Positions 9,068-40,694 of a stretch of DNA of 64,000 nt are shown one piece after another. The translations under genes and the position numbers were made by a program. A model generated the notes under the pieces. It did no database searches. It was not told where the DNA came from and saw only the letters and a list, made by a program, of their open reading frames with translations. This stretch comes from Rhodothermales bacterium (GTDB lineage Bacteria; Bacteroidota; Rhodothermia; Rhodothermales; JANQRZ01), in the NCBI GenBank assembly GCA_965214485.1, contig CBDCBW010000010.1, forward strand, positions 130,594-194,593, read 5' to 3'. Numbering within the stretch: the first letter of the stretch is position 1; the number at the start of each line of letters is the position of its first letter.

Positions 9068-9112
9068 CGGGCCGCTTGTGTTCGCCTCTCTCTCGCACGC
9101 CCTCTCCGAATC

Positions 9113-19652: not shown

Positions 19653-19931
19653 ATGGCCCACATCGACGTAGTCCGCGCTCACGCCCTCGGCCTCGCCGGA
19701 GCCCGCCGGGCCGCCGAGGAGGTTGCCGCCGAGCTTCGGGACGAGCTCCCGTTCCGCACGCACTGGGAGGGCGATACGCTCGTGGCCCGCGGCGCAGGCT
19801 TCGACGCGCAGTTCGTGGCCGACGACGAGGCGGTGCGCGTGCTGGTCAGGCTCGGCCTCGTGCTCCGCCCGATGCGCCGCAAGATTCACGGCGAGATCGA
19901 AGCCTACCTCGACCGCTACATTCCGGCCTGA
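19653..19931 (+). CDS. Polyhydroxyalkanoic-acid-system-like small protein (family assignment tentative)
   Basis: 92 aa from the ATG at 19653: MAHIDVVRAHALGLAGARRAAEEVAAELRDELPFRTHWEGDTLVARGAGFDAQFVADDEAVRVLVRLGLVLRPMRRKIHGEIEAYLDRYIP. This resembles the small 'PHA system protein' family recalled from memory. Confidence 0.45.
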   Translation: MAHIDVVRAHALGLAGARRAAEEVAAELRDELPFRTHWEGDTLVARGAGFDAQFVADDEAVRVLVRLGLVLRPMRRKIHGEIEAYLDRYIPA

Positions 19932-20014
19932 GTCCGCCCCATTCCGGTCTGAGTCTGCCCCGCGCTGCTCAGCCTCTCTTCTCTCCCTTCTCTCCTCCAT
20001 CCCCCACGTCTCCG

Positions 20015-20692
20015 ATGCGCTCTCACGTCCTCCGCTTTCTCTACAACCGCGCCGTCGGGGGCCTCCCGGTCCTCGGCACGCCTGCCGAAACGGCGGGCCG
20101 CTTTCTCTCCGGCCCCGGCACGCTCGCCGAGCGCGCCGAGGAGATGAGCAAAACCCACGTCATGCTCTGCGCGAGCACCGGCTTCGTGCTCGGGCTGCCG
20201 GGCTTCCTGATGCTGCCGATCACGCTGCCGACCAACCTCGCGGGCGTGGCCCTCGTTCAGCTCCACCTCGCCGCCGCCACGGCCTTCATGGGCGGCCACG
20301 ACCCGCACGACAAGGCGGTGCGCGAGCGCGCCGTGGCGTGCCTGCTCGGGCGGGGCACCGAGGAGCCGACCGAGGAGGACGAGGCCGTCGAGGTGATCGA
20401 CCGCTCGGCGGTGAAGCTGGCCGAGCGCGGGATCCGGTTCCTCGCCGAGGGCGCGGTCGGGCTGGCGACGCGGGCCGGGCGCTGGGGGGCGACGAAGGTG
20501 GTGACCCGGCAGCTTCCGCGCCGGAGCCTCCCGCTCGTCGGCGGCGTGCTCGGGGGGGCGTCGGACGCCTACAGCGCGGGCAAAGTCGCCGAGGCCGCGC
20601 GCCGGGCTTTTCTCGATGTCGAGCCGCCGCTCTCCCTCGTCGCCGAGATCGAGACGTCCGAGATCGAGGCGTCGGGCGACGGGGCCGGCTGA
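20015..20692 (+). CDS. EcsC-family protein
   Basis: 225 aa. The stretch THVMLCASTGFVLGLPGFLMLPITLPTNLAGVALVQLHLAAATAFMGGHD resembles the EcsC family core. Confidence 0.5.
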   Translation: MRSHVLRFLYNRAVGGLPVLGTPAETAGRFLSGPGTLAERAEEMSKTHVMLCASTGFVLGLPGFLMLPITLPTNLAGVALVQLHLAAATAFMGGHDPHDKAVRERAVACLLGRGTEEPTEEDEAVEVIDRSAVKLAERGIRFLAEGAVGLATRAGRWGATKVVTRQLPRRSLPLVGGVLGGASDAYSAGKVAEAARRAFLDVEPPLSLVAEIETSEIEASGDGAG

Positions 20693-20826
20693 GCGAGCGT
20701 CGGCGCTCTCTTTGGTGGGAGACCGGCGTATGTTCGCGGAGGGTGCTATTTTTAATCGGCAGTGGCAGCCCCGGGTTCAGTCCGCCGGGGAGTCTCCCGA
20801 TACCGCTGCCGACGCCCCGCCCCGCT

Positions 20827-22773
20827 ATGGCCGCATCCCCGCACCCCTTCGCGCAGCGCTCGGTGATCGAGCAGGCGCTCGTCAGCGTCTCGCACTTGCT
20901 GGTCTCCTCGAGCGAGGCCGACCTGCGCGAGGTGCTCCGCATTCTCGGCGAGGCGCTCGGCGCGGAGTGCGCTTACCTCGTCACCGTGCCCGACGAGAAC
21001 CACGCCCTGACCGAGGCCGCGACGCCGCTCGGCACGATGACTCGGTGGCACCGCGACGGGGCCTCGAGCGAGCAGTCCCTCTTCGACGGAGACCGCGACG
21101 CGAGCAGCCCGACGCTGCGGCTCCTCGCCAACGCGCAGCACCACCCGGGCCGAGACGTCCACGTCCAGACCGGCTCCGACGGGAGCGAGTCGGCGGGGGT
21201 TGCCATTCCGCTGCTCTCGAAGCAGGACCGGTTCGTCGGCTACCTCGGCATCGAGCACGCAGCGCTGCCGGACCAAGCCCTGCGCGAGCACGGCCGGGTG
21301 CTCTCCGTCTTCGGCGACCTCCTCTCGGGCTACCTCAGCCGCCGCGACGCCGAGCGGGCCCTCTCGGAGAGCGAGGAGCGCTGGCGCAAGTTCGTCGAGT
21401 TCAACCCCGAGCCGATCCTCATCACCACCGCCGACACGATCCTCTACGCCAACGAAGCCTGCATGCGCCTCCTCGGCATCGACGAGCCAGAGGCCCTCCA
21501 GGACTACGCGCTGCGCGACTTTCTCCCGGCCGACCAGGTCCACCTGATCGAGACGCAGCAGGCCATCGCCTCGGACCAGGCCCCCCTGGAGCACGACATC
21601 GTCCGGCTCGACGGCGAGGAGCGGGTCGTCGAGACCATCGCCGTGGCGGTGCGCTTCCAGGGCCTCGAGGCCGTGCAGATGGTGATGCGCGACCTCACCG
21701 ACCGCAAGCGCAGCCAGGAGCGCTACCGCACGTTCGTCCAGACGATCTCCGAGGGGGTCTGGCGCATCGACATCGCTAAGCCGGTCTCCGCCCTGGCCTT
21801 CCCCACGCTCCAGGCCGATCAGATGCTCGAGCACGGCTACCTCGCCGAGTGCAACACGATGATGACCCGGCTCCTCGGCGCTTCCCGCACCGAAGCCGTC
21901 GTCGGCAAGCCGCTCCGGACGCTGGTGCCGGCCCTCGGCAGGGGCATGGTCGAGACCTTCGTCGAGAACGGCTACCGGCTCCACAACCACGAGGTGTCGT
22001 TTCAAGGGGCAGGCCGGTCCCCGCGCCACTTCTCGCTCAACGCCGTCGGCCGGATCGAGCGGGGTGCGCTGGTCCGCATCTGGGGAAGCTGCGTCGAGGT
22101 CACCGAGCGCGTCGAGATGGAGCGCCGCATGGTGGCCGTGCTCGAGGAGCAGCAGGAGCGCATCGGGCGCGACCTGCACGACAGCGTGGGGCAGCTCCTG
22201 ACGGGGATCCGGATGCTGAGCGAGAACCTCGGGACGCGCCACTTCAGCCCTGGGGAGGAGGGCTACGCCGCCATGCAGAAGGTGACCACCTTCGCCGAGG
22301 ACGCCCTCCAGCGGGTGCGCGAAATCTGCCGGGGCCTGGTTCCGCCGCAGCTCTACCAGGAGGGCCTCGGGTCCGCGCTGCACGGGCTGTGCGCCACGCT
22401 CGATGTGCTCTCCGACGTCCGCTGCTCGTTCACCCAGCATGAAGAGACCGAGGTCGAGAGCTACGAGACGCAGCTCCAGCTCTACCGGATCGCGCAGGAG
22501 GCCGCCAACAACGCCCTCAAGCACGCCGAGCCGGAGCACATCTGGCTTCGCCTCACGCGCGAGAACGGGTTCGTCACCCTCGAAGTAGAGGACGACGGAC
22601 GAGGCTTCGAGGAGGAGCAGCACACCGGACGCTCCCTGGGGCTGTACAGCATGCGCCGCCGGGCGAGCAGCATCCGGGCTACGCTCGTCATCGACTCCGA
22701 GATCGAGGTTGGGACGCTGGTAAAGGTGGTGCTTCCGGCGAAGGAACCGGCGCAGGAGACGGCCGAGGTGTAG
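20827..22773 (+). CDS. Sensor histidine kinase (GAF-PAS-PAS-HisKA_3-HATPase), NarL-type partner
   Basis: Start at the ATG at 20827 (MAASPHPFAQRS). It has two PAS-like segments ending in MRDLTDRKRSQE, the H-box HDSVGQLLTGI, and the ATPase N-box IAQEAANNALKHA with DDGRGF. The 368 codons upstream in the track ORF overlap the EcsC gene out of frame. Confidence 0.8.
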   Translation: MAASPHPFAQRSVIEQALVSVSHLLVSSSEADLREVLRILGEALGAECAYLVTVPDENHALTEAATPLGTMTRWHRDGASSEQSLFDGDRDASSPTLRLLANAQHHPGRDVHVQTGSDGSESAGVAIPLLSKQDRFVGYLGIEHAALPDQALREHGRVLSVFGDLLSGYLSRRDAERALSESEERWRKFVEFNPEPILITTADTILYANEACMRLLGIDEPEALQDYALRDFLPADQVHLIETQQAIASDQAPLEHDIVRLDGEERVVETIAVAVRFQGLEAVQMVMRDLTDRKRSQERYRTFVQTISEGVWRIDIAKPVSALAFPTLQADQMLEHGYLAECNTMMTRLLGASRTEAVVGKPLRTLVPALGRGMVETFVENGYRLHNHEVSFQGAGRSPRHFSLNAVGRIERGALVRIWGSCVEVTERVEMERRMVAVLEEQQERIGRDLHDSVGQLLTGIRMLSENLGTRHFSPGEEGYAAMQKVTTFAEDALQRVREICRGLVPPQLYQEGLGSALHGLCATLDVLSDVRCSFTQHEETEVESYETQLQLYRIAQEAANNALKHAEPEHIWLRLTRENGFVTLEVEDDGRGFEEEQHTGRSLGLYSMRRRASSIRATLVIDSEIEVGTLVKVVLPAKEPAQETAEV

Positions 22774-22950: not shown

Positions 22951-23670
22951 ATGAACTCGAGCCCCTCTCCAGCCTCCCCGGACACTCCCGCCGCCTCGGC
23001 CCCGATCCGCGTCGTCGTCGTCGACGACCACCCGGCCATCCGCGAGGCCATCGCCGACACCATCCGCGCCCAGCCCGGACTCGAACTCTGCGGCGTCGCC
23101 GGCAGCGCCACCGACGCCTTCGACCTCGTGCGCGAGACCCAGCCCGACGTCGCCGTCATCGACATCTCGCTCGGCGACGCCCACGGCCTCGACCTGGTGC
23201 AGAACCTCCGCGCCCAGCACCGCTCGCTCGAGGTCGTCGTCTTCTCGATGTACGACGAGGAGGTCTACGCCGAGCGCGCCATCCGCGCCGGTGCCCGGGG
23301 CTACGTCATGAAGAGCGAGCCGACCCAGAGCGTCGCCGAGGCGATCCGGTGCGCGGCCTCGGGCGAGATCTACCTCAACCGCCGCGCCGCCAGCCGGATC
23401 CTGTCGAAGGTCGCCGCCGGGCACACCGGTGCCGGGCGCACCGGCGAGGCGGCGCCGGGGCTCGAGGACCTGACGGACCGGGAGATGGCGGTCTTCCAGA
23501 TGCTCGGGCAGGGTCGCCCGACCGAGGAGATCGCCGAGCGGCTGAACCTGAGCCGCAAGACGGTCGAGACCTACCGGCGGCGGGCGAAGGAGAAGCTGGG
23601 CTTCGAGACGGTGACCGAACTCCTCCAGTTCGCCATACGGTGGACCTACGCCCAGGGCAACGGCCCCTAG
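22951..23670 (+). CDS. NarL/LuxR-family response regulator, copy 1
   Basis: 239 aa with a REC domain (VVVVDDHPAIRE...DVAVIDISLGD...MKS) and a LuxR HTH (LTDREMAVFQMLGQGRPTEEIAERLNLSRKTVETYRRR). Confidence 0.85.
   Translation: MNSSPSPASPDTPAASAPIRVVVVDDHPAIREAIADTIRAQPGLELCGVAGSATDAFDLVRETQPDVAVIDISLGDAHGLDLVQNLRAQHRSLEVVVFSMYDEEVYAERAIRAGARGYVMKSEPTQSVAEAIRCAASGEIYLNRRAASRILSKVAAGHTGAGRTGEAAPGLEDLTDREMAVFQMLGQGRPTEEIAERLNLSRKTVETYRRRAKEKLGFETVTELLQFAIRWTYAQGNGP
23020..23643 (+). repeat. 624-bp block identical to 24370-24993
   Basis: Line-by-line comparison of the two regions shows no mismatch over the block (offset 1350 bp). It covers nearly the entire response-regulator coding sequence. Confidence 0.9.
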
Positions 23671-23781: not shown

Positions 23782-24303
23782 CTCGGAGCGGAGCGATGGC
23801 AGCGGAAGCGGGGGCCAGCCTGCGAGCAACGGTCTTCCGCTGTGGCAGTGCGGCGGGGCGGCTCTGCGGTCCTGGGCGTGAAGAACCCCTCGACTTCGGC
23901 CTACGGGACACGTCCTACGGCCCCCGCCCAGGATGACGGGACAAGGGGAGGCCATCGCGGCGCGCGGCTCCGTCTCCCGAGCCGGCACGCGGGCGAGGCG
24001 ACCGAGGCGCTTCCGACGCGATGACCGGTGAGTGTCCCGGAAAGGACCAGGGTGAGCTTGCCCCGGCACCGATCCCTCTTTTCGGCGCAGCGCGGGGGGT
24101 ACAGAAGCACTAGGCGGGATGCGCCCAAACTACCCCCTTGCATGTGCTAAAACTCAAGGGTTTCCTACCGCCCCAGCGGGTACTTTTAGATTGCCCTTCC
24201 TGCTGGTCCACGCCTCCGACCCTCTCCGCCTAACCGCCCCGGCTTCGTGTTCGCTTCCTTCTTCCCGGTCGCTGACCATGTGCCCCCCGAGGCCACCCGG
24301 ATC

Positions 24304-25029
24304 ATGCCCGTCCCTTCTCTCCATTCCGCCGCCACGGCCGCGAAGCGGGCCCCGATCCGCGTCATCGCCGTCGACGACCACCCGGCCATCCGCGAGGCCA
24401 TCGCCGACACCATCCGCGCCCAGCCCGGACTCGAACTCTGCGGCGTCGCCGGCAGCGCCACCGACGCCTTCGACCTCGTGCGCGAGACCCAGCCCGACGT
24501 CGCCGTCATCGACATCTCGCTCGGCGACGCCCACGGCCTCGACCTGGTGCAGAACCTCCGCGCCCAGCACCGCTCGCTCGAGGTCGTCGTCTTCTCGATG
24601 TACGACGAGGAGGTCTACGCCGAGCGCGCCATCCGCGCCGGTGCCCGGGGCTACGTCATGAAGAGCGAGCCGACCCAGAGCGTCGCCGAGGCGATCCGGT
24701 GCGCGGCCTCGGGCGAGATCTACCTCAACCGCCGCGCCGCCAGCCGGATCCTGTCGAAGGTCGCCGCCGGGCACACCGGTGCCGGGCGCACCGGCGAGGC
24801 GGCGCCGGGGCTCGAGGACCTGACGGACCGGGAGATGGCGGTCTTCCAGATGCTCGGGCAGGGTCGCCCGACCGAGGAGATCGCCGAGCGGCTGAACCTG
24901 AGCCGCAAGACGGTCGAGACCTACCGGCGGCGGGCGAAGGAGAAGCTGGGCTTCGAGACGGTGACCGAACTCCTCCAGTTCGCCATACGGTGGGAGCAGA
25001 GCCAGACCAGCCCGCGCTCGGACTCGTAG
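24304..25029 (+). CDS. NarL/LuxR-family response regulator, copy 2
   Basis: Identical to copy 1 except for the N-terminal about 25 aa and the last about 12 aa. Start chosen at the ATG at 24304 (MPVPSLHSAATAAKRAPIRVIAVDDH); the track ORF begins at the GTG at 24247. Confidence 0.8.
   Translation: MPVPSLHSAATAAKRAPIRVIAVDDHPAIREAIADTIRAQPGLELCGVAGSATDAFDLVRETQPDVAVIDISLGDAHGLDLVQNLRAQHRSLEVVVFSMYDEEVYAERAIRAGARGYVMKSEPTQSVAEAIRCAASGEIYLNRRAASRILSKVAAGHTGAGRTGEAAPGLEDLTDREMAVFQMLGQGRPTEEIAERLNLSRKTVETYRRRAKEKLGFETVTELLQFAIRWEQSQTSPRSDS
24370..24993 (+). repeat. Second copy of the 624-bp identical block
   Basis: See 23020-23643. Confidence 0.9.
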
Positions 25030-25103: not shown

Positions 25104-26231
25104 CTAGTCGGTCTCGGGGAGGTAGAGCTCTGCCGTCCGGCGCGCGGCGGAGTAGGCCCCGTACCGCAGCCCGCCTGCGACGCCGTCCTGCGCCAGCACG
25201 TTGAGCCGCACCCGGTCCCAGTACGGCTCGACCTTCATGTGAGCCTGTTTCGGAAGCCGCTCCAGCAGGTCGTGCCCCAGCGTTCTCACGCGGTGGTCGC
25301 GGCGGATGTCGTCCCGGACGTGCTTCGGCAGCGGAGCCGCCAGGAGGTCAGCGGCGAGCAACAGGCCGAGCCGGAGGATGCGGCGGCTGCGCATCGCGCC
25401 CATCCGGTCGTAGACGGCGTGCCAGTCCAGGCCGGGGTAGGCGCGGACGAGCTCGGCGACGTCGCAGATGTACTTGAACCGGTCCCACCGATTCTTCAGG
25501 CCGTGGTAGCACAGCACCTGGAGGAGGTCCTCCGTGCCCAGCGTGCGCACGTCGCGCCCGGCGATGGGCACCGTCACCGAGCGCGCGAGGAGGGCGTCGA
25601 AGCTCTCCGAGTACCGGTAGCCCGGCGGCATTATGGCCGTGTGCACGTCGATGAAAGCCTGCGCTTCGCCGAGGCTGTGGATGCGCCGCCAGAACGTGTA
25701 TTGGCCGTTGAGGTAGAGATAGCTCGCCTTCCGAAACGGGGTCAGCGGCTTGGACCCGTAGCCTTCGCGGGCCAGCATCCGGTCGAGCCGGTCGAAGTCC
25801 TCGCGCCGGACGACCAGGTCGATGTCGACGAACGGGCGGGCGGCGATGCCTCCGTAGACGCTCTGCGCAAGCACGGCCCCTTTGACGGCGAGCGTCGGGA
25901 AGGCCTCGCGCTCGAACACCTCGGACAGGCGCCCGAGCTCCTGCATCAGGATGAGGCTGTGGGCCGAGCGCGCCCCGACGACCCCGCGCAGCCACGTCAT
26001 GTGCGGCTCCGAGAGGAGGGCGTCGTCCATCTCGCGCAGGTGGCAGTAGAGGAGCGGCTGCACGCCGTGGTAGCCGGCCAGCGTGACGAGGTAGCCCCAC
26101 TGCAGATCGTCGTCGCGGAGGTGGTGCGCGACCTGTTCGGCATGGGACGGCTCGAGCTCCGTCCGGCAGCAGAGCCGCATGATGTTGTATTCGGGGCGGG
26201 AGCCGGCCTCGTCGGGGTGAATCGTAGCCAT
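25104..26231 (-). CDS. Uncharacterised nucleotidyltransferase family protein (NTP_transf_5-like)
   Basis: Start at the ATG at 26231 (MATIHPDEAGS...). The protein has PFVDIDLVVRREDFDRLDRMLAREGY and the overall helical N-domain typical of the PF14907-type family that often accompanies lasso-peptide/HPr-kinase-like clusters. Confidence 0.6.
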   Translation of the reverse strand: MATIHPDEAGSRPEYNIMRLCCRTELEPSHAEQVAHHLRDDDLQWGYLVTLAGYHGVQPLLYCHLREMDDALLSEPHMTWLRGVVGARSAHSLILMQELGRLSEVFEREAFPTLAVKGAVLAQSVYGGIAARPFVDIDLVVRREDFDRLDRMLAREGYGSKPLTPFRKASYLYLNGQYTFWRRIHSLGEAQAFIDVHTAIMPPGYRYSESFDALLARSVTVPIAGRDVRTLGTEDLLQVLCYHGLKNRWDRFKYICDVAELVRAYPGLDWHAVYDRMGAMRSRRILRLGLLLAADLLAAPLPKHVRDDIRRDHRVRTLGHDLLERLPKQAHMKVEPYWDRVRLNVLAQDGVAGGLRYGAYSAARRTAELYLPETD

Positions 26232-26240
26232 CAATCTCTC

Positions 26241-26292
26241 GTCATCAGAAGGGTGCCTCTTGTCCTCGGACCTCGTGTCATCAGAAGGGTGC
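26241..26292 (-). promoter_or_regulatory. Two 16-bp direct repeats in the promoter/5' region of the nucleotidyltransferase gene
   Basis: gtcatcagaagggtgc occurs at 26241-26256 and 26277-26292 (36-bp spacing). An AT-rich stretch follows, with TTGACG on the minus strand (attattgacgtgc) just upstream. Confidence 0.45.
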
Positions 26293-26461
26293 ACGTCAAT
26301 AATTCAGAACACACCGGTAGGCCTGACCGGGGCACAGCCGCCGCCGGAGGCATCGCGCGGCGAGCAGAGAGGCTGAGCGCGAGAAGGGGGTTCCGGCAGC
26401 GGGCGTCGGGGCAGTAAGATATCGCATGTTGTCCAACTTGCCTAAGGCTCCGCCAGCGCGC

Positions 26462-27598
26462 TCAGGGCTCGGACGGCCTCCGTGCAGCCTGAGCCGATGG
26501 CTTCAGCACCAGCTCGGCGATGACCGCCCGGTGGTCGGAAACCAGGTCGGGGTCCACGCGCGCGCGCCGGACCACCCAGTCGTCGCTGGCGAGCACGTAG
26601 TCGATGCGGACGAGGGGTAGGCCCGCCGGGAACGTCCCGCCCCAGCCCGTCCCGGCCTCGTCGAAGGCGTCCCGAAAGCCGTGCGCGAGGTGGGTGTAGG
26701 CCCAGTTCCGCGGCGTGCTGTTGAAGTCGCCGCACACGAGGAACGGGTGGGGCTCCGCGTCGAGCATCGCGCGTAGCTGGCGGGCCTGCTCGGCCCGGAC
26801 CTCGAAGTCGCGGCCGTAGGCGTGGAAGGCATCGAGCCAGGCGCGCGGCGAGAACCGCTGGTCCTCCCGCCGCCACGGGCGCTGGCTGCTGAACGAGTGG
26901 AGGTGCACGTTGTAGACCATGATGGTCCGGCCCTGCCACCGGTAGGCGCGGCGCGTGATGCCGCCGGAGCTCCACAGCCCCTCCGGGGGGTTGCCCCGCA
27001 CCAACTCGCTTCGCCCCACCGCCTCGATGCGCGAGAAGAGGGGCCGCGAGAACATGAAGTCCTTGCCGCCATCGGGCCGCGACATCTCGTAGGCTTTGTC
27101 CTTGAGCAGCGGGCCGAGCAGCGGCGCGCCCCAGGTCACGCCGGTGTCGCGGAGCAGGCGGATCGAGAACTCCTGGAGCGCGATGAGGTGGGGGCGGTCG
27201 CGCGCCAGCACGTTGGCGAGGACGTGCTGCTTGCCGCCGCCGTCCTTGCCTGCGTTGAACGTCATCACCGTGAGGCCGGGCGCGTCGGCGGCGGCGGTCG
27301 CGGGGTCAGCGCTGGCGTTCAGCTCCGGCATGAGCACGGTGGCGAGGCAGAGGAGGAGGTGAAGCGCAGCGAGAGCCCAGCGCCGCTTCACGATGAGACC
27401 GACGGCTACGAGCGCCGCCGCGACGAGAACAAGCGTGCCGAAGATGGCGACGACCTGGAGGCCCCAGAGCTGCTCCGGCGGCACGAAGGGGGCCGCGTTC
27501 GCCGCCGCGAGGAGGCCGACGAGCGCGGCGTCTGCCCCCCAGAGAAGCCATCGCCCCCTCCGGGACGGCGGGCGCTTCGGAACCGCTTCGGTCGTCAT
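26462..27598 (-). CDS. Membrane-anchored endonuclease/exonuclease/phosphatase (EEP) family protein
   Basis: 378 aa with about three N-terminal TM helices. The EEP motifs are VMTFN, IALQEF, VYNVHL, CGDFNSTP, RIDYVL and SDHRAV. The start overlaps the upstream stop (ATGA at 27595-27598). Confidence 0.75.
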   Translation of the reverse strand: MTTEAVPKRPPSRRGRWLLWGADAALVGLLAAANAAPFVPPEQLWGLQVVAIFGTLVLVAAALVAVGLIVKRRWALAALHLLLCLATVLMPELNASADPATAAADAPGLTVMTFNAGKDGGGKQHVLANVLARDRPHLIALQEFSIRLLRDTGVTWGAPLLGPLLKDKAYEMSRPDGGKDFMFSRPLFSRIEAVGRSELVRGNPPEGLWSSGGITRRAYRWQGRTIMVYNVHLHSFSSQRPWRREDQRFSPRAWLDAFHAYGRDFEVRAEQARQLRAMLDAEPHPFLVCGDFNSTPRNWAYTHLAHGFRDAFDEAGTGWGGTFPAGLPLVRIDYVLASDDWVVRRARVDPDLVSDHRAVIAELVLKPSAQAARRPSEP

Positions 27599-28503
27599 GC
27601 CGGAATGTAGAACCGCATCAGGACGAGGACGAAGGCGGCCACGTAGAGCGCCGGGGCGTACCGGAAGGTCTCACGCTCGCACTGCATGATCCCCATCGCC
27701 ACGATGAGCCACGCGAAGTACAGGATCGGCGCGACGACGTAGGTCGAGAAGACGAACGCCAGCAGCACCGCGTCGCGCCACTTCGCCAGCCAGAACCTCC
27801 TCGGGAGCAGAAAGGCCACGGCCACGGCTCCCTCGATGGCGAGCGTCCACCACGTCATCAGCGCGGCGAGCCAGCGCGCCTCCGCCGCCAACGGCACCGC
27901 GAGCGCCCCCGCCGGATCGCCGAAGGCGGTGTAGACCACCCGCTCAAGGCGCGCCCGCGCCAGCACCCCGGCGTCGAGCCCGACGAGGTGCTCGGCGAAC
28001 AGCCCGAAGCGCGTGTCCTGAAGCAGGAAGTAGTTGAAGAACGCGCCGCTCACGTAGTCCGGCGAGAGCACCTTCCACAGCGTGGCGAACAGGAAGCACA
28101 GCCCGATGAGCACGCGGGCGTTCACCCGCACCGCCTTCAACGGCTCCACCGCGAGGAGCGAGACGCCGAGGCCGAGGCACCAGTAGAGCTTGAGGAAGTC
28201 GTGGTTGTTCTGCTGGTGCCACGTCTGCCAATAGGCGAGCACGAGCACCCCCACGAGCCCGAGCCACAGCAGCGGGTTGCGCATGAGCGGCCGGAGCACG
28301 AGCGCCGTCACCGTGAGCGTGGTGAGGCCGAGCTGGATGTGCCACGCCGGCTCGTGCAGCGAGAGCACGATCATCACGAGCGTCATCGCCGCCCCGAGCT
28401 CGAACAGGTCGGCCCCGAGGAGCGCATCGACGGGCCGGCGGGCGAGCGTACGCAGCCGGCTCGGTGGTCGAGGGTGCACAGGGGAGAGGGGGGCGGAGTC
28501 CAT
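27595..28503 (-). CDS. Polytopic membrane protein, HTTM / vitamin-K-dependent gamma-carboxylase-like membrane domain
   Basis: 302 aa with about 8 hydrophobic helices. WHQQNNHDFLKLYW resembles the WNNHSYLYGLL motif of GGCX. LWKVLSPDYVSGAFF resembles GVKKLDADWVEGYSM around the catalytic Lys. MTWWTLAIEGAVAVAFLLP resembles VHWGGLLLDLSAGFLLF. The comparison is from a recalled human GGCX sequence, not a search. Confidence 0.45.
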   Translation of the reverse strand: MDSAPLSPVHPRPPSRLRTLARRPVDALLGADLFELGAAMTLVMIVLSLHEPAWHIQLGLTTLTVTALVLRPLMRNPLLWLGLVGVLVLAYWQTWHQQNNHDFLKLYWCLGLGVSLLAVEPLKAVRVNARVLIGLCFLFATLWKVLSPDYVSGAFFNYFLLQDTRFGLFAEHLVGLDAGVLARARLERVVYTAFGDPAGALAVPLAAEARWLAALMTWWTLAIEGAVAVAFLLPRRFWLAKWRDAVLLAFVFSTYVVAPILYFAWLIVAMGIMQCERETFRYAPALYVAAFVLVLMRFYIPA

Positions 28504-28509
28504 AGGGTG

Positions 28510-29118
28510 CTACTCGGCAGCGCTCGGTTGCACCGTCGCCTCGGCGATGCGCTCCCAGCGAAGCAGCTCGGCGTCGGGGTCGAAGACGGGCCTCCAGACC
28601 TCGACGCGCGCGCCCTCGACCTCGGCGTCGGTCGGGAGGCCGTTGTAGGGCGCGCGGCGCGGGTCGAAGGCCAGGTGGCTGGGGTAGAGACCGGAGGCAT
28701 CGACCGACGCCGAGTCCGCCCACGCCGCCTGCCACGCCTCGGAGGTGCGGAAGTAGTGCTGGAGGAAGTCCGGCAGCGACGGCCAGACCGTGCGGTACGT
28801 CGAGGCGTCGTAGACCCGCCAGTCCTGCGCGGCGACGGTGCGCGCCGCCGCCTCGAGGCGGGCCTGCGTCGGCTGCGTGTAGACCAGGCGCGTCTTGACC
28901 CCGAAGCGGGGCTCGACGACGAGCGCCTCGCCCCGGTCCGTCAGCACGTAGGCGCGGAGGGCGCGGGCCCCGGGCACGTCCACGGTCGAGAACATCCCGA
29001 AGCCGCCGCCGGCCCACTGTGTCTGGCCGTGGACCTCGACGTTGTAGCGCTGCAGCGCCACGCCGGCGATCAGCACGATGGGGGCGAGTCCGTAGGCGAG
29101 CCGCTGCGGGAGTCTCAT
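28510..29118 (-). CDS. Single-pass membrane/exported protein, resembles the start of the extracytoplasmic domain of HTTM/VKGC-family proteins
   Basis: Start at the ATG at 29118 (MRLPQRLAYGLAPIVLIAGVALQ), overlapping the ABC exporter stop (ATGA). GGGFGMFSTVDVPGARALRAYVLTDRGE resembles the GYSWDMMVHS...VKITYRDGRTGE segment that follows the membrane domain in GGCX. Otherwise there is no recognisable motif. Confidence 0.35.
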   Translation of the reverse strand: MRLPQRLAYGLAPIVLIAGVALQRYNVEVHGQTQWAGGGFGMFSTVDVPGARALRAYVLTDRGEALVVEPRFGVKTRLVYTQPTQARLEAAARTVAAQDWRVYDASTYRTVWPSLPDFLQHYFRTSEAWQAAWADSASVDASGLYPSHLAFDPRRAPYNGLPTDAEVEGARVEVWRPVFDPDAELLRWERIAEATVQPSAAE

Positions 29119-31025
29119 CGCGGTACGGCGGTGGGGTCCGGAGCAGGGGTCACCTCGGCGGTCTCGTCCCCGGCCTGCCCGTCGCCGACGATGGGCTCCG
29201 CCGTGCCGTCCTCCTGCCGCATCTGCGCCCGCCACGACGCCGCGTACCGCCCGCCGAGGGCAATCAGCTCGTCGTGCGTGCCGGTCTCGACGACCTGCCC
29301 GGCGTCCATGACGTGGATAATGTCGGCCTGCATCGCAGTCGTGAAGCGGTGGGTGATGAGGAGCGCCGTCCGGCCCTCGACCATCCGGCGGAACCGCGCC
29401 AGCCACTCGTTCTCGGCCCACGAGTCCATCGAGCTCGTCGGCTCGTCGAGCACGACGATCGGGGCTTGGCGGAAGAAGGCCCGCGCGAGCGCGACCCGCT
29501 GCCACTCGCCGCCGCTCAGCTCGCTCCCCGTCTCGAACCACCGCCCGAGGACCGAGTCGTACTTCCGGGGCAGCTTCTCGATGACCTCGTGCGCCCCCCC
29601 GCCGACGGCTGCCGCCTGCACGGCGTCGAGATCGACCTCGCGGCCGAGGTCGCCGAGGCGGATGTTGTCCTCGGCCGTCATCTGGTACTTCATCGGGACC
29701 TGGAACATCACCGAGACGTGGCGGCGCAGGTCGGTCTGCGCGAACTCCCGCAGGTCGATGCCGTCGACCGTGATGCGCCCGGCGGTCGGGTCATAGAACC
29801 GGCAGAGGAGCTTGATGAAGGTGCTCTTCCCCGCCCCGTTCTCGCCGACGATGGCGACGATCTTGCCCGACGGGATCGTGAGGTTGAAGCCTTCGAGCGC
29901 CTTCCGCTCGAAACCGGGATAGCTGAACGAGACGTCCTCGAACCGGACGCCCTCGTCGATCCGGTCGGGAAATGGGGTGGGCGTTGCCGGCTCGGCGAGG
30001 CCGTTCTCCTGGTCGAGGAAGTCGAAGAGGTGTTCGAGGAAGAGCGTGTTGGTGTAGACCTGTCCCATGTTCTGGAGCAGCCCGCCGACGAGCGCCTGCC
30101 CCTGGTTGAACGCCTGGTAGAAGAGCGCGAGGTCCCCCAGCGTGGCCGCGCCGCGCGTCGCCCGGAGCACGACCCACAGCATCGCCCCGCCGGTGGCAAT
30201 GAGGCCCATGAAGGTGGCGAAGATGCGCGCGACGACCTGGTTCTTGAGCAGCTTCAGGCGCTCCTCCCGAAGGGCCCGGCGCAGCGCGAGGTAGCGGCTG
30301 CGGAAGTACTCGCCGGTGTTGTTGATCCGCACCTCGGCCGCCGACGCATCGAAGGTCACCATCAGGTCGAAGTACTGCGCGAGGCGGCGGCGGGCCGTCG
30401 AGGCCTTCCACCACGCATGGTACTTCTTGTTGTGACGGACGACGACGAAGAACGCCGGCAGCGTGCTGACGATGAGCACGAGGGGCAGCCACAGGCTGTA
30501 GCTCAGCAGGATCGCCGAGATCGAGAGCAGCGTCACGGTCGCGCTGAGCAGCCCGCCGATGTTGCCGAGGAGCTGCAGCACCCGGCTGTTGGCCTGCGAG
30601 TTGACCTGCTCGAGCTTGTCGTGGTAGTCCGCCGACTCGTAGAAGCCGAAGTCCACCTCGGTCGCTTTCTCGTGGACGAGGGCCTTGACTCGGTCCCCGA
30701 CGAGCTCCGCCTGCGCGGTCGAGACCCACTCGTTGATCCCGCCGAGGACGCGCTGCAGAATCATGACCCCGCCCATCAGCGCCGCCGGAGCGATCACCAC
30801 CGCCAGCGCAGCCTCGCCCGCGACCGCCGCCGCGAGGCTATCGACGAGCCACTTCGTGAGGTAGACCACCGCCGCCGGCAGCGTCCCCTGCACGGCCAGG
30901 AGGAGGAACCACACCACGGTCCACCGGCTCGCCGCCGACCAGATCAGCCGGAGCGCCATCCCCACGTAGGACGCCCGCAGCCGGAGGTCGTCGGCCTTGT
31001 GCCGCCACGTCTGCGTTGCCGTCAT
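29115..31025 (-). CDS. ABC exporter, fused permease + ATPase (lasso-peptide D-type transporter)
   Basis: 636 aa with a six-helix TMD. The NBD has Walker A GENGAGKSTF, signature LSGGEWQRV and Walker B IVVLDEPTS. It sits inside the lasso operon. Confidence 0.85.
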   Translation of the reverse strand: MTATQTWRHKADDLRLRASYVGMALRLIWSAASRWTVVWFLLLAVQGTLPAAVVYLTKWLVDSLAAAVAGEAALAVVIAPAALMGGVMILQRVLGGINEWVSTAQAELVGDRVKALVHEKATEVDFGFYESADYHDKLEQVNSQANSRVLQLLGNIGGLLSATVTLLSISAILLSYSLWLPLVLIVSTLPAFFVVVRHNKKYHAWWKASTARRRLAQYFDLMVTFDASAAEVRINNTGEYFRSRYLALRRALREERLKLLKNQVVARIFATFMGLIATGGAMLWVVLRATRGAATLGDLALFYQAFNQGQALVGGLLQNMGQVYTNTLFLEHLFDFLDQENGLAEPATPTPFPDRIDEGVRFEDVSFSYPGFERKALEGFNLTIPSGKIVAIVGENGAGKSTFIKLLCRFYDPTAGRITVDGIDLREFAQTDLRRHVSVMFQVPMKYQMTAEDNIRLGDLGREVDLDAVQAAAVGGGAHEVIEKLPRKYDSVLGRWFETGSELSGGEWQRVALARAFFRQAPIVVLDEPTSSMDSWAENEWLARFRRMVEGRTALLITHRFTTAMQADIIHVMDAGQVVETGTHDELIALGGRYAASWRAQMRQEDGTAEPIVGDGQAGDETAEVTPAPDPTAVPR

Positions 31026-31053
31026 CGGATTGCATTCTCAGCCAACCCGGAGG

Positions 31054-31962
31054 CTAGCTGTGTGTGGGGACCGCATCGAGGTCTGCCTCGACCAGAGCGA
31101 AGATGTCGGGCAGGGCATCGAGAGACATGATACGCTCCAGAAGCGCCACCGGCGTGTGCTTGGCGAGCTGGGCGCACTGCTTGAAGTGCTCGGAGACGTA
31201 CTCGGGGGCGGTGATCCAGTTCGTCGAGTGCGTGTGGGCGACGAGGTGCATCGGCACCTCCTGCGTGCCGAGCTGCGTGACCCGGTTCGCCTCCGAGGTC
31301 TGCCGCCGCAGCACGTAGAGCTTCGACAGAGGTATCGACCGCACGTCCTCCCCCTTTAGAAGGCGCAGCCGCTTGGGCGAAATCTCGGTGACGAGCGGCA
31401 GGCTTTCGTGGTCCTCGACGAGCCGCTCGGCGGAGTTCGGGCGGAGGCGGACCTGTTTGATGCCCGGCGGGACGCGCGTCGGCTCGGTCTCCGTGCCGGG
31501 GAGCACCACCATCACGTCGTCCGTGATGAGCTCGTAGCCGTTCTGGCAGAAGTACTCGGCGAGGGTCGACTTGCCCCACCCGGAGTTGCCCAAAAACGCG
31601 ACCGCCCGCTCGCCGTCCGACACCGCCGAGCCGTGCAGCACGAGGAGGTGGCGCTGCCTGAGCGCCGCCGCGAGCAGCGCGCCCTGCACGAAGCTGCGGA
31701 GGAGGTCCTCCGAGATCGGCTTCAGCGTGTCGTAGGTGACGACCCTGCCCGCGTTGAGGTGGAAGAGGAGGTCGAGGTCCCACTCGTCTTCCTTGATGTG
31801 CCCGGAGACCACGTCCCCGTAGCGCGCGTCGGCAGCGCTCTTGCGCACGCGGAGGTTGCCTTTTTGGATCGTGACGTCGGGCGGACCGTCGTCGCCGGGT
31901 GCGAAGCCGGAGAGCTCGATGTCGGAGTGGATGGAGAGTCCGAAAGCCTTGTGGCGATGCAT
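31054..31962 (-). CDS. HPr-kinase-C-terminal-domain-like Ser/Thr kinase (lasso-peptide kinase type)
   Basis: Start at the ATG at 31962 (MHRHKAFGLSIHSDIEL). LHGSAVSDGERAVAFLGNSGWGKSTLA is the P-loop context seen in HprK-related kinases of paeninodin-type lasso clusters. Confidence 0.65.
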   Translation of the reverse strand: MHRHKAFGLSIHSDIELSGFAPGDDGPPDVTIQKGNLRVRKSAADARYGDVVSGHIKEDEWDLDLLFHLNAGRVVTYDTLKPISEDLLRSFVQGALLAAALRQRHLLVLHGSAVSDGERAVAFLGNSGWGKSTLAEYFCQNGYELITDDVMVVLPGTETEPTRVPPGIKQVRLRPNSAERLVEDHESLPLVTEISPKRLRLLKGEDVRSIPLSKLYVLRRQTSEANRVTQLGTQEVPMHLVAHTHSTNWITAPEYVSEHFKQCAQLAKHTPVALLERIMSLDALPDIFALVEADLDAVPTHS

Positions 31963-32021
31963 CGTGTGGTGGGCTGCAGGCGGCGGGACCTGGGTTGCAG
32001 AGATGAGAGCACCCCATTCTA

Positions 32022-32057: not shown

Positions 32058-32102
32058 CGAGTCGTGCTCCGGCCACCTGGGCCGGTCGTGTAGAGGCGAG
32101 CC

Positions 32103-32288
32103 CTACGGATCGATCATGCACGTTTCCTGGTTGACGGTCGGGCACTGGTCGACCGAGTTGAGTCCTTCCTCGATCACGTTGCCGTCCAGGTCGAACGACT
32201 GATCGCCCGTGAAGGGGTCGCCCAGCGTCGCCGTGATCTCCGCCACATCACCGTAAGCGGTGAGTTGAGGTGCGATATAGGTCTTCAT
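32103..32288 (-). CDS. Lasso-peptide precursor (A), 61 aa
   Basis: MKTYIAPQLTAYGDVAEITA|TLGDPFTGDQSFDLDGNVIEEGLNSVDQCPTVNQETCMIDP. The leader fits the lasso motif YxxPxLx3Gx5Tx exactly (Y4, P7, L9, G13, T19). Asp sits at core position 9. The gene lies between the cyclase and the kinase. The ATG at 32288 is internal to the 102-aa track ORF. Confidence 0.7.
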   Translation of the reverse strand: MKTYIAPQLTAYGDVAEITATLGDPFTGDQSFDLDGNVIEEGLNSVDQCPTVNQETCMIDP

Positions 32289-32490: not shown

Positions 32491-34587
32491 CTAGACCGGC
32501 ATCTCCCCACCTTCCGGTTTCGTGAGCGAGGGGGTACTCTCCGCCGTGTCCACGAATCTCTTCTTTAGCCAGAAAGACAGGGTAGCCACACGGGCGAGCT
32601 GGGCCTGTTCGATGTTGGAAACGTCTTTCCCCCCGCGGTAGAGGCTATCGACCTCGGCTTCGTCCACGTAGGGGCGGAGCGCCCCGAGGTCCGTGATGTG
32701 TTCGTCGAGGAGGCCGCGGTCTTGCTCGTAGAGGCCGCGCTCGAAGTTGGGAGCGAGCCACGCCTTGCCCACGCGCCACTGCACTTTCTTCGGCAGGACG
32801 CCCTCGAGCGCGCGGCGCAGGATGGACCGCGTCCACCCGTCTTTCAGGCTCTGCCCGGGCGGGAGCGCGAGGCAGAACTCGACGAGCCGTTTGTCGAAGA
32901 AGGGGTGACGGATTTCGATGCGGTGTGCTGCGCTGGCGTGGGTGGTGAGCTCGAGCGCCGTTTGGATGCGGGAGCCGTTGAGCAACTGGCGCTGCACGTC
33001 GCGCACCGTCGTTAGCCGAGGCTTCTGGACCTCGAAGGCCTGCAGGCGCTCGGCGACCCCGATGCGTTCGGCAAAGGCGGGGTTCAGCAGCGGCAGGAGC
33101 GGCTCGGGGCGGCGCTCGGCCTTGGGGCCGCTGCGCCAGGCGTCGCGGGCGCGCTGCAAAGCCAGCGGTTGCATCAGCCAGCGCCGGTAGCGCCGGAACA
33201 GCTCGGCGCGCTCAACGCCGAAGAGCCGGTGCGCCGCCGAGGCTTCGCGGACGAACTGCCAGCGCTTGCCCTGCTCGGCGAGACGCTGAAGCCGGGCCAG
33301 CCCGAACCGCTGGAACGCCGTGTTGAGGTTGGCGAAGCTGTCCTCGAAGTTGTGGCGCTGCTCGGTGCTCTGGAACTGCCGCGCCGCAGCCTTGCTCTCG
33401 TGGGCGAACGTCTCCCAGTCCCCAGCCTCCGCTAGCTCCTTGAGATAGAGCAGCCCGTGCCCGACGACGTTGTCCCCGTCGAGGCCATCGAGGAGCACGC
33501 GGACGCCCGCCTTGCGAGCGGCAGCCTTCGCGGCCCACACGAGATGCTGGTTGCCGCTGGCGAGGCCGTCGTCGAGGTAGGTGTACACCTCGTCCAAATT
33601 GGAGAGCGGCCCGAGCTGGTCCCCTCGCACGAAGTGCGGGATGAAATCGCCTTGCTCTAGCACCGCGTCGATGAACGGGCGCTCGTCGCACGTCGCGACG
33701 TCCTCGTAGACGAGCGAGACCGTGTGGAGCGGCTTCCCCTCTTTCTCCAAGAGCCGCGCTGCCACAGCCGTGATCGACGACGAGTCCATCCCCCCACTCA
33801 GTTCAGAGCCGACGGGGAACGCGCTGCGGAGGCGGGCGCGGACGGCCTCGGTGAACAGCTCCCGGAAGCGCGCCTCGTACTCGGCGTCGGAGGCGTCGGG
33901 TGGCACATCGGCCGCCGGGGCCAGCGTGTAGTAGCGCCAGCGCCGCAGCCCGTCCGGGGAGACGGTGAGCGCGTGCGAGGCCGGGAGGCGGAGGACCTCT
34001 TCGTAGATCGTGTTCTCCGGGTCCTCGCGCATGGTCGCGAGGAAATCGGCGAGGCGGACCTCGTTGAGCCGCTCCGGCACCTCGGGTACGGCGAGCAGGG
34101 CTTTGATCTCCGTCCCGCAGGCGAAGTGGCTCCCCTCCCGGTAGTGGTAGTAGAAGGGTCGGATGCCGAAGTGATCGCGCGCGCAGAACAGCCGCTGCGC
34201 CGGGCCGTCCCAAATGGCAAAGGCGAAATCCCCGATGAGATGATCGAGGCAGCCCTCGCCCCACGCCGCGTAGGCGGCCAGAATCAGGTTGCTGTCGGTG
34301 ACGGGCTCCGCCTGGTCGCCGAGCCGCAGCCGGGCGAGCAGCGCGTCCCGGTTGTCGATCCGGGCATCGGCGGTGATGGCGAGCCCCGCCTCGGTCGCCA
34401 ACGGCAGCGCTTCGTGCAGCGATTCCGGCGTGGTGTGGAGCATCCGGTGCCCCAGCCCGATCGGCCCCTCGGCCCACACGCCCGCGCCGTCAGGGCCGCA
34501 GTGCGCCACGGCGTCGCCCATGCGGCGCAGCGCGTCCCGGTCCACGCCGTGACCGTCGAGTCGGTATAGCCCGGTGAGTGCGCTCAC
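32491..34587 (-). CDS. Lasso-peptide cyclase (asparagine-synthetase-like, C protein)
   Basis: Start at the GTG at 34587 (VSALTGLYRLDGHGVD), overlapping the B2 stop (GTGA). There is no N-terminal Cys nucleophile. It has the PP-loop SELSGGMDSS and is 698 aa. The 121 upstream codons of the track ORF overlap B2 out of frame. Confidence 0.8.
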   Translation of the reverse strand: MSALTGLYRLDGHGVDRDALRRMGDAVAHCGPDGAGVWAEGPIGLGHRMLHTTPESLHEALPLATEAGLAITADARIDNRDALLARLRLGDQAEPVTDSNLILAAYAAWGEGCLDHLIGDFAFAIWDGPAQRLFCARDHFGIRPFYYHYREGSHFACGTEIKALLAVPEVPERLNEVRLADFLATMREDPENTIYEEVLRLPASHALTVSPDGLRRWRYYTLAPAADVPPDASDAEYEARFRELFTEAVRARLRSAFPVGSELSGGMDSSSITAVAARLLEKEGKPLHTVSLVYEDVATCDERPFIDAVLEQGDFIPHFVRGDQLGPLSNLDEVYTYLDDGLASGNQHLVWAAKAAARKAGVRVLLDGLDGDNVVGHGLLYLKELAEAGDWETFAHESKAAARQFQSTEQRHNFEDSFANLNTAFQRFGLARLQRLAEQGKRWQFVREASAAHRLFGVERAELFRRYRRWLMQPLALQRARDAWRSGPKAERRPEPLLPLLNPAFAERIGVAERLQAFEVQKPRLTTVRDVQRQLLNGSRIQTALELTTHASAAHRIEIRHPFFDKRLVEFCLALPPGQSLKDGWTRSILRRALEGVLPKKVQWRVGKAWLAPNFERGLYEQDRGLLDEHITDLGALRPYVDEAEVDSLYRGGKDVSNIEQAQLARVATLSFWLKKRFVDTAESTPSLTKPEGGEMPV

Positions 34588-35045
34588 GCGGCGTCCGGGT
34601 GGACCGGGCTCAGCGGCGTGTACCGGACCTGCGACAGCCCTCCCCCGATGACGACGTAGCCGTCGCGCTCGAGCCATGCATGCGCCAGGAGTTTGCGACC
34701 GTCCTTGCTGACGCCGAGGTGAAGCGAGGTTTCGTAGCCGCCCCGCCGCAGCATCCGCTGCGCGACGAGCGCCTGCGTCAGGCACGGCTTGTCGCCCAGC
34801 GTCCGTCGTCCCACCGCCTCCACGGCGGCGACGACGCGCTGCCGGAAGGCTGCCCCCTCTTGGATAGTGACAGGAGCTACCTCTCTTCGCCCTGAACTCG
34901 TTAGACCTGAGCCTGCCAGACGCTGCACCGTGCGATAGGGCAGCACCCACAACCCCACCCGCACCGCCGCTACCAGCGCAAGCGCGTGCAGCAGGAGCAT
35001 CTTGTCCTCCCCGGACCGGTCTAGGAATTTACGAAGGGCTCCCAT
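34584..35045 (-). CDS. Lasso-peptide leader peptidase (B2, transglutaminase-like Cys protease)
   Basis: 153 aa. N-terminal LRKFLDRSGEDKMLLLHALALVAAVRVGLWVLPYRTV, catalytic Cys context KPCLTQALVAQRMLRRGG and His context LLAHAWLERDG are all typical of lasso B2 proteins. Confidence 0.8.
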   Translation of the reverse strand: MGALRKFLDRSGEDKMLLLHALALVAAVRVGLWVLPYRTVQRLAGSGLTSSGRREVAPVTIQEGAAFRQRVVAAVEAVGRRTLGDKPCLTQALVAQRMLRRGGYETSLHLGVSKDGRKLLAHAWLERDGYVVIGGGLSQVRYTPLSPVHPDAA

Positions 35046-35319
35046 CCGTGATCTCGATGAGCTGACGCTGCTCCATCTCGTGCAAAAACGCGAGGAGGTC
35101 TTCCTTCAGCTTACTCTCCTTCACATCGTACTCCTGGAGCAAGGCGTCCATGATGCGTTCCACCGAACGCGGTTTCCGCACGAGGTCGAAGATGCGGGCT
35201 CCTAGCTCGTTCAGGCCGTAATAGCGCCCCGAGTTAGGGTCCAGCACGACGGCCTCTCCACCGAGATCAGCAGCCGTCAAGCCCGGCGTCACTACAACAG
35301 TCGATTGCTCTGTCATCAT
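35029..35319 (-). CDS. PqqD-family RiPP recognition element (lasso B1)
   Basis: GEAVVLDPNSGRYYGLNELGARIFDLV...ERIMDALLQEYDV is the PqqD/RRE pattern. ATG at 35319, with an alternative TTG at 35331. It overlaps the B2 start by 17 nt. Confidence 0.75.
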   Translation of the reverse strand: MMTEQSTVVVTPGLTAADLGGEAVVLDPNSGRYYGLNELGARIFDLVRKPRSVERIMDALLQEYDVKESKLKEDLLAFLHEMEQRQLIEITDGSPS

Positions 35320-35477
35320 GAGCAGGTTCAAGGTGAGTTACCTCCGAAGGGATTTAAGGGCACAGTATAGAGCGCGTCCGACTGAAGTGCCTACGCCCGC
35401 CCGAGATTCTACCGAGCAACGTGCCGTTTTGGTGCCAGCACATCCTGTGCCGTGAGCCTGCCAAGCACCGAGAGTTC

Positions 35478-40158: not shown

Positions 40159-40694
40159 GTCGTAAGGCCTGGTAGGCGTCTGTCGGCGTAAAATAAAAGG
40201 GTGTTAAGCGCGGAGACTTCCTCGCGCTCCACACGCGGCCTAGCACTAAGCCAGTACTAAGAACGTCAACTCTGCAGCCTAAAGGAAATGAAGAAGGTAC
40301 CACTTCCAGCAGGATCACGTCGGCGTCATCAGGCGCAGCGCCCATAGGCTTCTGGCGCAATGGGTGCTGGGCGATTCGCTCAAGGGTTATCGGCCCCCGC
40401 TACGAGCACTCCAGCATAGGCAAGAGCCATTCCGATTCTCGCCCGGCCGATTTCAAATTGTTCGAGCATTTCGAAATTCCCCCTCGGTACCTCTCTATCT
40501 ACTGCTCCTGCTACACACACCCTGCACCTTGCCGCTAAGAGAACCGCACGATTTGTAAGCGCGGCGTCACGCGGGGTGCATAGAGGTGTCAGTAACGGGC
40601 TGCTAAAGGAATCCAGGCCAAACCAGCGCCCCGCACGGTATGTCGCTTGTCAAACGTGGGAGTACGAAACGTGCCCACGACTACCGACAACCCC

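Follow-up and report, generated by a model that had tools for sequence, protein, structure and literature searches.

What would two membrane proteins resembling gamma-glutamyl carboxylase (GGCX) be doing inside an operon for the synthesis of a lasso peptide? The question is raised by a 64,000-nucleotide stretch of contig CBDCBW010000010.1 from assembly GCA_965214485.1 (positions 130,594 to 194,593 of the forward strand, hereafter the window), in which a 202-amino acid (aa) and a 302-aa protein are encoded next to one another among lasso biosynthesis genes. The G+C content of the window is ~70% and its nearest relatives place the source as a Rhodothermales bacterium. A preliminary description of this DNA had proposed that the two proteins represent a GGCX split into separate genes, with the "C-terminal half" encoded first, and that they might gamma-carboxylate Glu residues of the exported peptide. 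In both fold and predicted docking, the pair does behave like a split GGCX and it is most likely a two-subunit relative of the vitamin-K-dependent carboxylases. For the locus as a whole, the best explanation is that a GGCX-like two-gene module was recruited into the lasso operon and would modify the exported peptide, a reading to which we assign a probability of roughly 0.55.

Likeness of the pair to GGCX

Both open reading frames (ORFs) and all of the motifs quoted in the preliminary description are present as claimed, and both proteins begin at the same start Met as their homologues. The 302-aa protein contains QNNHDFLKLY at residues 98-107, LWKVLSPDYVSGAFF at 142-156 and TWWTLAIEGAVAVAFLLP at 217-234, while the 202-aa protein contains GGGFGMFSTVD at 37-47 and LRAYVLTDRGE at 54-64. 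The human GGCX strings with which these motifs had been compared (WNNHSYLYGL, GVKKLDADWVEGYSM, HWGGLLLDLSAGFLLF and GYSWDMM...VKITYRDGRTGE) are accurate and appear in an alignment of a bacterial HTTM protein to GGCX chains. The HTTM protein concerned is a bona fide one from the same order as the host (E 1e-45 to GGCX chains), and the alignment maps its N109/H110 to GGCX N159/H160 and its invariant Lys to K218. In GGCX, K218 forms a hydrogen bond with vitamin K hydroquinone and the substrate Glu is held by N159, H160 and Y395; the T391-H404 linker, which follows transmembrane helix 9 (TM9), lies within the membrane between that helix and TM4 (bioRxiv 10.1101/2025.02.09.637231).

The predicted model of the 302-aa protein exhibits the GGCX transmembrane-domain fold. 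GGCX was its top fold match, ~5 Z units above the next chain, with ~210 of the 302 residues aligned across the whole TM domain, and the residues invariant in the family occupy the helices that carry the catalytic residues in GGCX. W80, N100 and H101 do not vary among 149 distant representatives, at least 90% of which retain D99, K144, D163, R165 and E224; N100 and H101 are also invariant in a narrower set of 36 sequences. In the upper likeness band of the census described below, N100 and H101 were each found in 114/114 cases and K144 in 57/60, and K144 is retained in 135/144 census carriers, which bears out the conservation of the N-H and Lys motifs, one of the points on which the preliminary description was to be judged. 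By the positive-inside rule, as read off the sequence, the conserved D99-N100-H101 (start of TM4) and W143-K144 (end of the fifth TM helix, H121-146) face the periplasm, i.e. the side topologically equivalent to the lumen of the endoplasmic reticulum. Based upon a weak alignment and the order of the helices, N100/H101 would be the equivalents of the GGCX Asn-His N159/H160 of the Glu pocket, and K144 may correspond to K218, the vitamin-K base of GGCX, through an alignment whose significance is not robust. When the profile of the narrow clade alignment was compared by hhalign to that of eight true HTTM proteins, P values of 0.002 (local) and 2.7e-5 (global) were obtained, as against 0.5-0.9 for reversed controls, and the global alignment pairs NNH/LNH, WK/AK and WWTLAIEGAVAVAFLLP/FSWAGALYDLTIVFFLLWK, which are the three originally proposed matches in the same order. 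An ESM Atlas search returned an HTTM cluster as the single annotated neighbor (score 0.84). Weak matches of family members were also obtained to MauE (best E 0.0023), DoxX_3 (0.0047) and LMF1 (0.016), all of which we take to belong to the same Pfam clan as HTTM.

The 202-aa protein is the obligate partner of the 302-aa protein. Its gene is located within 2 kb of the carrier gene in 111/114 cases of the 40-59% band and in 48/69 and 6/30 cases of the other likeness bands (random places, 0). Of the 86 loci fetched, 83 have the partner gene immediately upstream and on the same strand, and the remaining 3 end at a contig edge. The protein consists of an N-terminal TM helix (~residues 5-30), an invariant loop (W35-x-G37G38G39-F-G-M42F43-S-T-x-D47) and a periplasmic alpha/beta domain with an invariant E173-V-W175 strand at its end (AlphaFold2 model, predicted local distance difference test [pLDDT] 87.8); short-form relatives lack a ~70-residue helical insert. 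The predicted complex of the two proteins scored 0.91, as compared to 0.00 for the best of 3 controls, a mark attained by 58/80 solved complexes and 2/110 mismatched pairs. Agreement between runs extends to at least 94% of contacts, and the partner pLDDT is at least 85. Residues 1-20 of the partner are predicted to contact residues 107-115 and 124-144 (TM4/TM5) of the 302-aa protein and its loop (34-53) to contact 95-100, 143-144 and 147-159, touching the N-H and Lys motifs, which would dock the partner where GGCX has TM9 and the T391-H404 linker. In the manner of a split HTTM pair, the polytopic protein has an adjoining single-pass partner with an extracytoplasmic domain that is predicted to complete a GGCX-like assembly. 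A 343-aa reading of the partner ORF from a GTG at 29541 was rejected, as it overlaps the ABC exporter gene in another frame and all homologues begin at Met 29118. A thiol-disulfide oxidoreductase role was rejected as well, since neither protein contains a CxxC motif and the partner lacks Cys entirely.

A number of results weigh against a relationship with GGCX. The hmmscan check suggested in the preliminary description turned out negative, as no hidden Markov model (HMM) test places either protein in HTTM or VKGC_lumenal_dom. PF05090 (HTTM) matches were found neither for the 302-aa protein at E up to 1 nor for its relatives (36 at E up to 10 and 149 at E up to 1), and the VKGC_lumenal_dom, DUF5819, SdpA and SdpB HMMs have no match in either protein or in 149, 37 and 36 relatives; the partner and its 37 relatives have no PF22777 match. 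A six-frame scan of the genome with PF05090 at E up to 10 missed the window gene and found a true HTTM gene on contig 9. Furthermore, profile searches of PDB sequences with two of the family alignments recovered no GGCX chain, and the hhalign signal to HTTM is limited to the narrow clade alignment. With the broad-family profile (149 or 193 sequences) the score drops to control level, which makes the signal from the narrow alignment less convincing. For the partner family, hhalign comparison with the lumenal/C-terminal part of true HTTM proteins yielded control-level scores, fold searches gave no GGCX match, and nothing beyond the TM-plus-loop arrangement is shared (motif alignment to a fused HTTM protein, E 0.015). 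Hence, the idea that the 202-aa protein corresponds to the opening of the lumenal domain survives for its TM helix and loop, which are predicted to dock like TM9 and the linker, but not for its globular domain, for which no likeness to the lumenal domain of GGCX could be detected. The comparison of the 302-aa protein with the GGCX membrane domain is likewise upheld by its TM fold and its periplasm-facing N-H and Lys, but not by any HTTM HMM match. Structural comparison was similarly divided, as Foldseek returned nothing at E <=0.001 for the 302-aa model, though GGCX had the best TM-score, and the GGCX-like docking could partly reflect predictor memory of the solved GGCX structures.

The sole PF05090-positive gene of the genome, located on contig 9 (213735-214505; L001:1159-2325, minus strand), encodes a divergent 388-aa HTTM protein (48.5 bits) without the lumenal-domain region. 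Elsewhere in the phylum, ~457-aa HTTM+PF22777 proteins or ~700-aa fused forms are encoded.

The lasso operon and its precursor peptide

The lasso operon context described previously is confirmed by Pfam and NCBIfam matches and by the gene junctions (Table 1). The pair is encoded within a compact minus-strand block in the order B1/PqqD, B2, cyclase, precursor, HPr-kinase-like, ABC exporter, 202-aa protein, 302-aa protein, endonuclease/exonuclease/phosphatase (EEP) and NTP_transf_5, such that all of the components of a lasso cluster are present: cyclase, B1 (PqqD), transglutaminase-like B2 and a precursor bearing a lasso leader. An ATGA overlap joins the stop codon of the ABC exporter gene to the start codon of the 202-aa gene, another joins the stop of the 302-aa gene to the start of the EEP gene, and the genes of the pair are separated by a gap of 6 nt, so the ABC, 202-aa, 302-aa and EEP genes constitute one translationally coupled unit. 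The EEP gene is kept in every lasso-linked locus and orthologues of the HPr-kinase-like gene bear ScmC/Hpr_kinase_C marks. The true start of the NTP_transf_5 gene may be slightly downstream of 26294. An Arg-rich ORF at 31022-32017 was rejected as an off-frame artefact of high G+C.

Table 1. Features of the lasso block and of the paralogous pair.
Feature	Coordinates	Strand	Evidence
Lasso B1 / PqqD-like leader-recognition element	35029-35331	-	PF05402 E 3.3e-19
Lasso leader peptidase B2, transglutaminase-like	34584-35045	-	PF13471 E 1.4e-21
Lasso cyclase (C protein, Asn-synthetase-like)	32491-34590	-	NF033535 E 2.6e-228, 759.8 bits vs cut-off 525
Lasso precursor peptide, 61 aa	32103-32288	-	NF033521 20.5 bits (cut-off 19); NF033528 32.7 bits, just under cut-off 33
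HPr-kinase-related protein, like lasso "K" tailoring kinase	31054-31962	-	TIGR04352 E 4.7e-8, PF07475 E 0.001, both sub-cut-off
ABC exporter, lasso D-type, fused transmembrane and nucleotide-binding domains	29115-31025	-	Pfam and NCBIfam
202-aa partner subunit (P0009)	28510-29118	-	Translation, alignment, AlphaFold2 model
302-aa polytopic inner-membrane protein (P0001)	27595-28503	-	Translation, GGCX/HTTM-like TM fold
Membrane-anchored EEP family protein	26462-27598	-	PF03372 E 2e-20
NTP_transf_5 nucleotidyltransferase, last gene of conserved block	25104-26294	-	PF14907 E 4.4e-52
Paralogous pair in locus L110	8975-9940 and 9933-10652	-	

The precursor has a leader ending in ...TATL and a predicted core of 39 aa, GDPFTGDQSFDLDGNVIEEGLNSVDQCPTVNQETCMIDP. 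The 17 precursors that co-occur with the pair share G1, F4, G6, D7, D11, G14 and two Cys, with cores of 38-41 aa. The gamma-carboxylation originally proposed at the EE and QET sites of the core is disfavored, because no Glu position is conserved among the 17 precursors and two of the cores have no Glu at all. From these sequences, gamma-carboxylation of specific Glu sites appears unlikely. That D7 and D11 are the only invariant acidic sites also counts against modification of the peptide by the pair. If the peptide is the target at all, Asp would be more plausible than Glu by analogy to MloH, a VKDC-related bacterial enzyme in malonomycin biosynthesis that carboxylates an aspartyl residue (PMC12186529). 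The precursors of the window and of loci L012, L111 and L112 have an apparent 7-residue ring (G1-D7) along with two invariant Cys, and the precursors lack a C-terminal Ser despite the HPr-kinase-like gene. Related clusters contain 2-4 tandem precursor genes. Just past the precursor stop in the window (approximately 32060-32105, minus strand), there is a G+C-rich inverted repeat (CCGGCC...GGCCGG), which could act as an attenuating hairpin setting the ratio of precursor to enzyme transcript.

A suitable cofactor is probably available, as menB (430 bits) and menA (223 bits) are encoded on contig 10 at 127830-129610, 1-3 kb upstream of the window start, which suggests that the host makes menaquinone. 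Two VKOR-domain genes are also present in the genome, on contigs 17 and 9.

From these features, a mechanism can be envisaged. In one Rhodothermales clade, a duplicate of an ancient autonomous module came to lie in the lasso operon, where it is translationally coupled between the ABC exporter and the EEP phosphoesterase. The 302-aa subunit is predicted to supply a GGCX-type TM bundle in which TM4 starts with Asn-His and TM5 carries Lys at its periplasmic end. The 202-aa subunit would contribute a single TM helix along with a membrane-embedded, Gly-rich loop (W-x-GGGFGMFS) packed on TM4/TM5, and the small periplasmic cap that is predicted to follow this loop has no recognisable fold. Menaquinol together with the conserved Lys would then presumably generate a strong base on the periplasmic face, allowing the exported lasso peptide, which is Asp-rich and disulfide-bearing, to be modified at an acidic residue, with Asp likelier than Glu, through carboxylation or another carbanion-type reaction. 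The specific proposition of an active menaquinol-dependent, carbanion-generating enzyme of the carboxylase type that modifies Asp/Glu of the lasso peptide in the periplasm after export is tentative, and on balance we consider it doubtful.

Outside of the ten-gene block, a PAS/HisKA_3 kinase ORF (within 19723-22773) precedes two GerE-type response-regulator ORFs on the plus strand (22951-23670 and 24247-25029), the products of which are near-identical over ~220 residues. Their sequences suggest a recent tandem duplication, and two regulators adjoin the lasso block in related loci too. On the other flank, the C-terminus of the ORF at 40647-41444 (plus strand) resembles, by eye, a type IX secretion sorting domain, which fits the Bacteroidota/Rhodothermia placement.

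Distribution of the family and alternative explanations

All of the 1,529 clusters detected by an exhaustive profile search at E up to 1e-3 are ~300 aa in length (~1,500 clusters at 50% identity), and a census of 36,145 genera identified 219 carriers from at least 25 phyla. The survey of lasso co-occurrence called for in the preliminary description revealed that the pair is not a lasso-specific module, as a lasso cyclase is found within 10 kb in fewer than 3 of the 219 carrier genera. Among 86 loci, lasso, ABC, EEP or NTP_transf_5 genes occur in Rhodothermales loci only. The nine lasso-linked loci with enough flank all have an identical ten-gene order (9/9), down to 53% identity of the 302-aa protein, and the lasso-linked subfamily (31 sequences) is monophyletic with support of 1.0. 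In non-lasso loci (L014-L016 and L024-L096), the commonest neighbors, in 41 loci each, are a DUF2092 (LolA-like) gene preceding the pair and, directly upstream of the pair, a gene for a secreted protein (e.g. L048:6791-7510, L085:6749-7315 and L096:5883-6722). This protein combines a signal peptide with a Gly/Arg tract, a tract rich in Gln/Asp/Glu/Arg and, at its C-terminus, a conserved two-Cys domain; it matches no Pfam family and is a candidate native substrate of the family. In locus L013, on a metagenome contig (nearest titled relatives Ilumatobacteraceae), a 103-aa protein (9067-9378) is encoded ahead of the pair. Its N-terminus is hydrophobic, its tail is very acidic and includes Cys and Glu (EIDEECAEGCDQEE...), and a HisKA_3/GerE two-component pair adjoins it, as in the lasso-linked loci.

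The same genome also encodes a second, paralogous pair (contig 9, 714507-715385 and the gene just upstream; see Table 1 for locus L110), and two same-genus genomes likewise contain two copies. The paralogue is located directly downstream of GT4-, carbamoyltransferase- and GT2-like genes, as named by reading the ORF translations, and there are no lasso genes within the surrounding 15 kb. Because the family is rarely lasso-linked and this paralogue stands beside glycosyltransferase genes, the function of the pair may concern the envelope rather than the peptide. Its target would then be a secreted or periplasmic protein, a lipid carrier or a polysaccharide, and its position in the lasso operon would be inherited clade synteny. 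Both the DUF2092 and secreted-protein neighborhood commonly seen around other copies and the Glycos_transf_4 and Wzz genes that adjoin the lasso block are in keeping with such a function. However, the pair resides inside the block, between the exporter and the EEP/NTP_transf_5 tailoring-type genes, to which it is joined by overlaps of stop and start codons, the lasso-linked copies constitute a clade separate from the paralogue, and the placement is stable down to 53% identity while the flanks of the conserved block differ in locus L111. For these reasons, we regard an envelope function unrelated to the peptide as distinctly unlikely. The most economical history is that of an autonomous envelope-facing enzyme pair, a duplicate of which was recruited once into a lasso operon.

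Alternatively, the pair could serve the lasso peptide as a maturation or export accessory of the SdpA/SdpB type, participating in processing, disulfide folding, release or producer protection with no vitamin-K-type carboxylation. Such a role is conceivable, since SdpA and SdpB are both needed to process SdpC into the SDP toxin (PMC6818787), and it would be compatible with the translational coupling of the pair to the ABC exporter as well as with the two Cys kept in all precursors. Conversely, SdpA (TIGR04034) and SdpB (TIGR04033) matches are lacking, there is no CxxC in either protein and no Cys in the partner, and the near-invariant constellation of N-H and Lys favors catalysis over scaffolding, so we view this accessory role as possible but unlikely. 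A further explanation would be that the likeness to GGCX is convergent or simply a chance feature of helical bundles in a mechanistically unrelated family. This is difficult to reconcile with the wide separation of GGCX from the next fold match over the whole TM domain, with the placement of the family's invariant residues on the helices that bear the catalytic residues of GGCX, or with a partner that is predicted to dock like TM9 and its linker, and it is in our estimation quite improbable.

Relation to known systems and significance

In GGCX, oxidation of vitamin K yields a base strong enough to deprotonate an unactivated C-H bond, and this chemistry has been demonstrated in animals and for one bacterial natural-product enzyme, MloH. 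Compared to GGCX, the putative enzyme encoded in the window consists of two polypeptides with the "C-terminal" part encoded first and it goes undetected by the HTTM and lumenal-domain HMMs. As known from sequence and models, its periplasmic domain is small, has no recognisable fold and is without a propeptide-binding domain, and the extra near-invariant D163, R165 and E224 of the family have no assignable GGCX counterpart. MloH is a fused carboxylase, and it demonstrates that Asp can be a substrate of enzymes of this type during natural-product biosynthesis (PMC12186529). The split DUF5819+HTTM pair offers a parallel for the division into two genes. In that system, too, a single-pass partner with an extracytoplasmic domain adjoins the polytopic protein, and the predicted complex is like a whole GGCX with a partner helix replacing a GGCX helix (bioRxiv 10.64898/2026.08.19.745780). 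Unlike that system, the window proteins match neither of the two models, have their own W-x-GGGFGMFS signature and occur in a different genomic context.

The sdpA gene immediately precedes that of SdpB, a membrane protein of the HTTM type. The window pair resembles SdpA/SdpB (and YitP/YitO) of Bacillus subtilis in that the small partner gene comes first and the gene for the polytopic membrane protein second. Both Sdp proteins are needed to mature an exported peptide toxin (PMC6818787). The window pair differs from them in having no TIGR04033 or TIGR04034 match (E up to 10; 37 partner and 36 polytopic sequences), in a putative substrate that is a lasso peptide made by B1/B2/C enzymes, and in its Gram-negative host. 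Lasso clusters with kinase and nucleotidyltransferase genes are also known, and those for paeninodin and pseudomycoidin similarly include B1, B2, C, HPr-kinase-like, NTP-transferase-like and ABC exporter genes (PMC8498205). In contrast to these, the window-type clusters add the GGCX-like pair and the membrane EEP protein, and their cores are unusually long (38-41 aa) with two Cys and no C-terminal Ser. The preliminary description had anticipated that any connection of such proteins to peptides that are made by ribosomes and then modified after translation (RiPPs) would be new, but SdpA/SdpB (PMC6818787), the HTTM-domain genes carried by linaridin clusters (PMC9927463) and MloH (PMC12186529) all precede it. 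No papers were recovered by a literature search combining HTTM with lasso peptide. Split HTTM systems have already been described, and what is new is an unannotated family pair with signature motifs of its own inserted in a lasso operon.

Several implications follow for the biology of this family. It is a large two-gene family that falls outside every Pfam and NCBIfam model and that retains a GGCX fold and catalytic-type residues, with the putative enzyme divided between two polypeptides. If the pair leaves the peptide unmodified, the DUF2092 and secreted-protein context would point to an envelope modification system of unknown kind. Should the pair modify the peptide, it would represent a new class of lasso tailoring that acts outside of the cytoplasm. 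If it is indeed an active post-export enzyme, it would provide the first quinone-driven post-export RiPP tailoring as well as the first function for a family present in at least 25 phyla. The lasso copy offers a tractable handle, with a small, exportable and mass-spectrometry-friendly candidate substrate encoded four genes upstream, through which the function of the whole family becomes testable.

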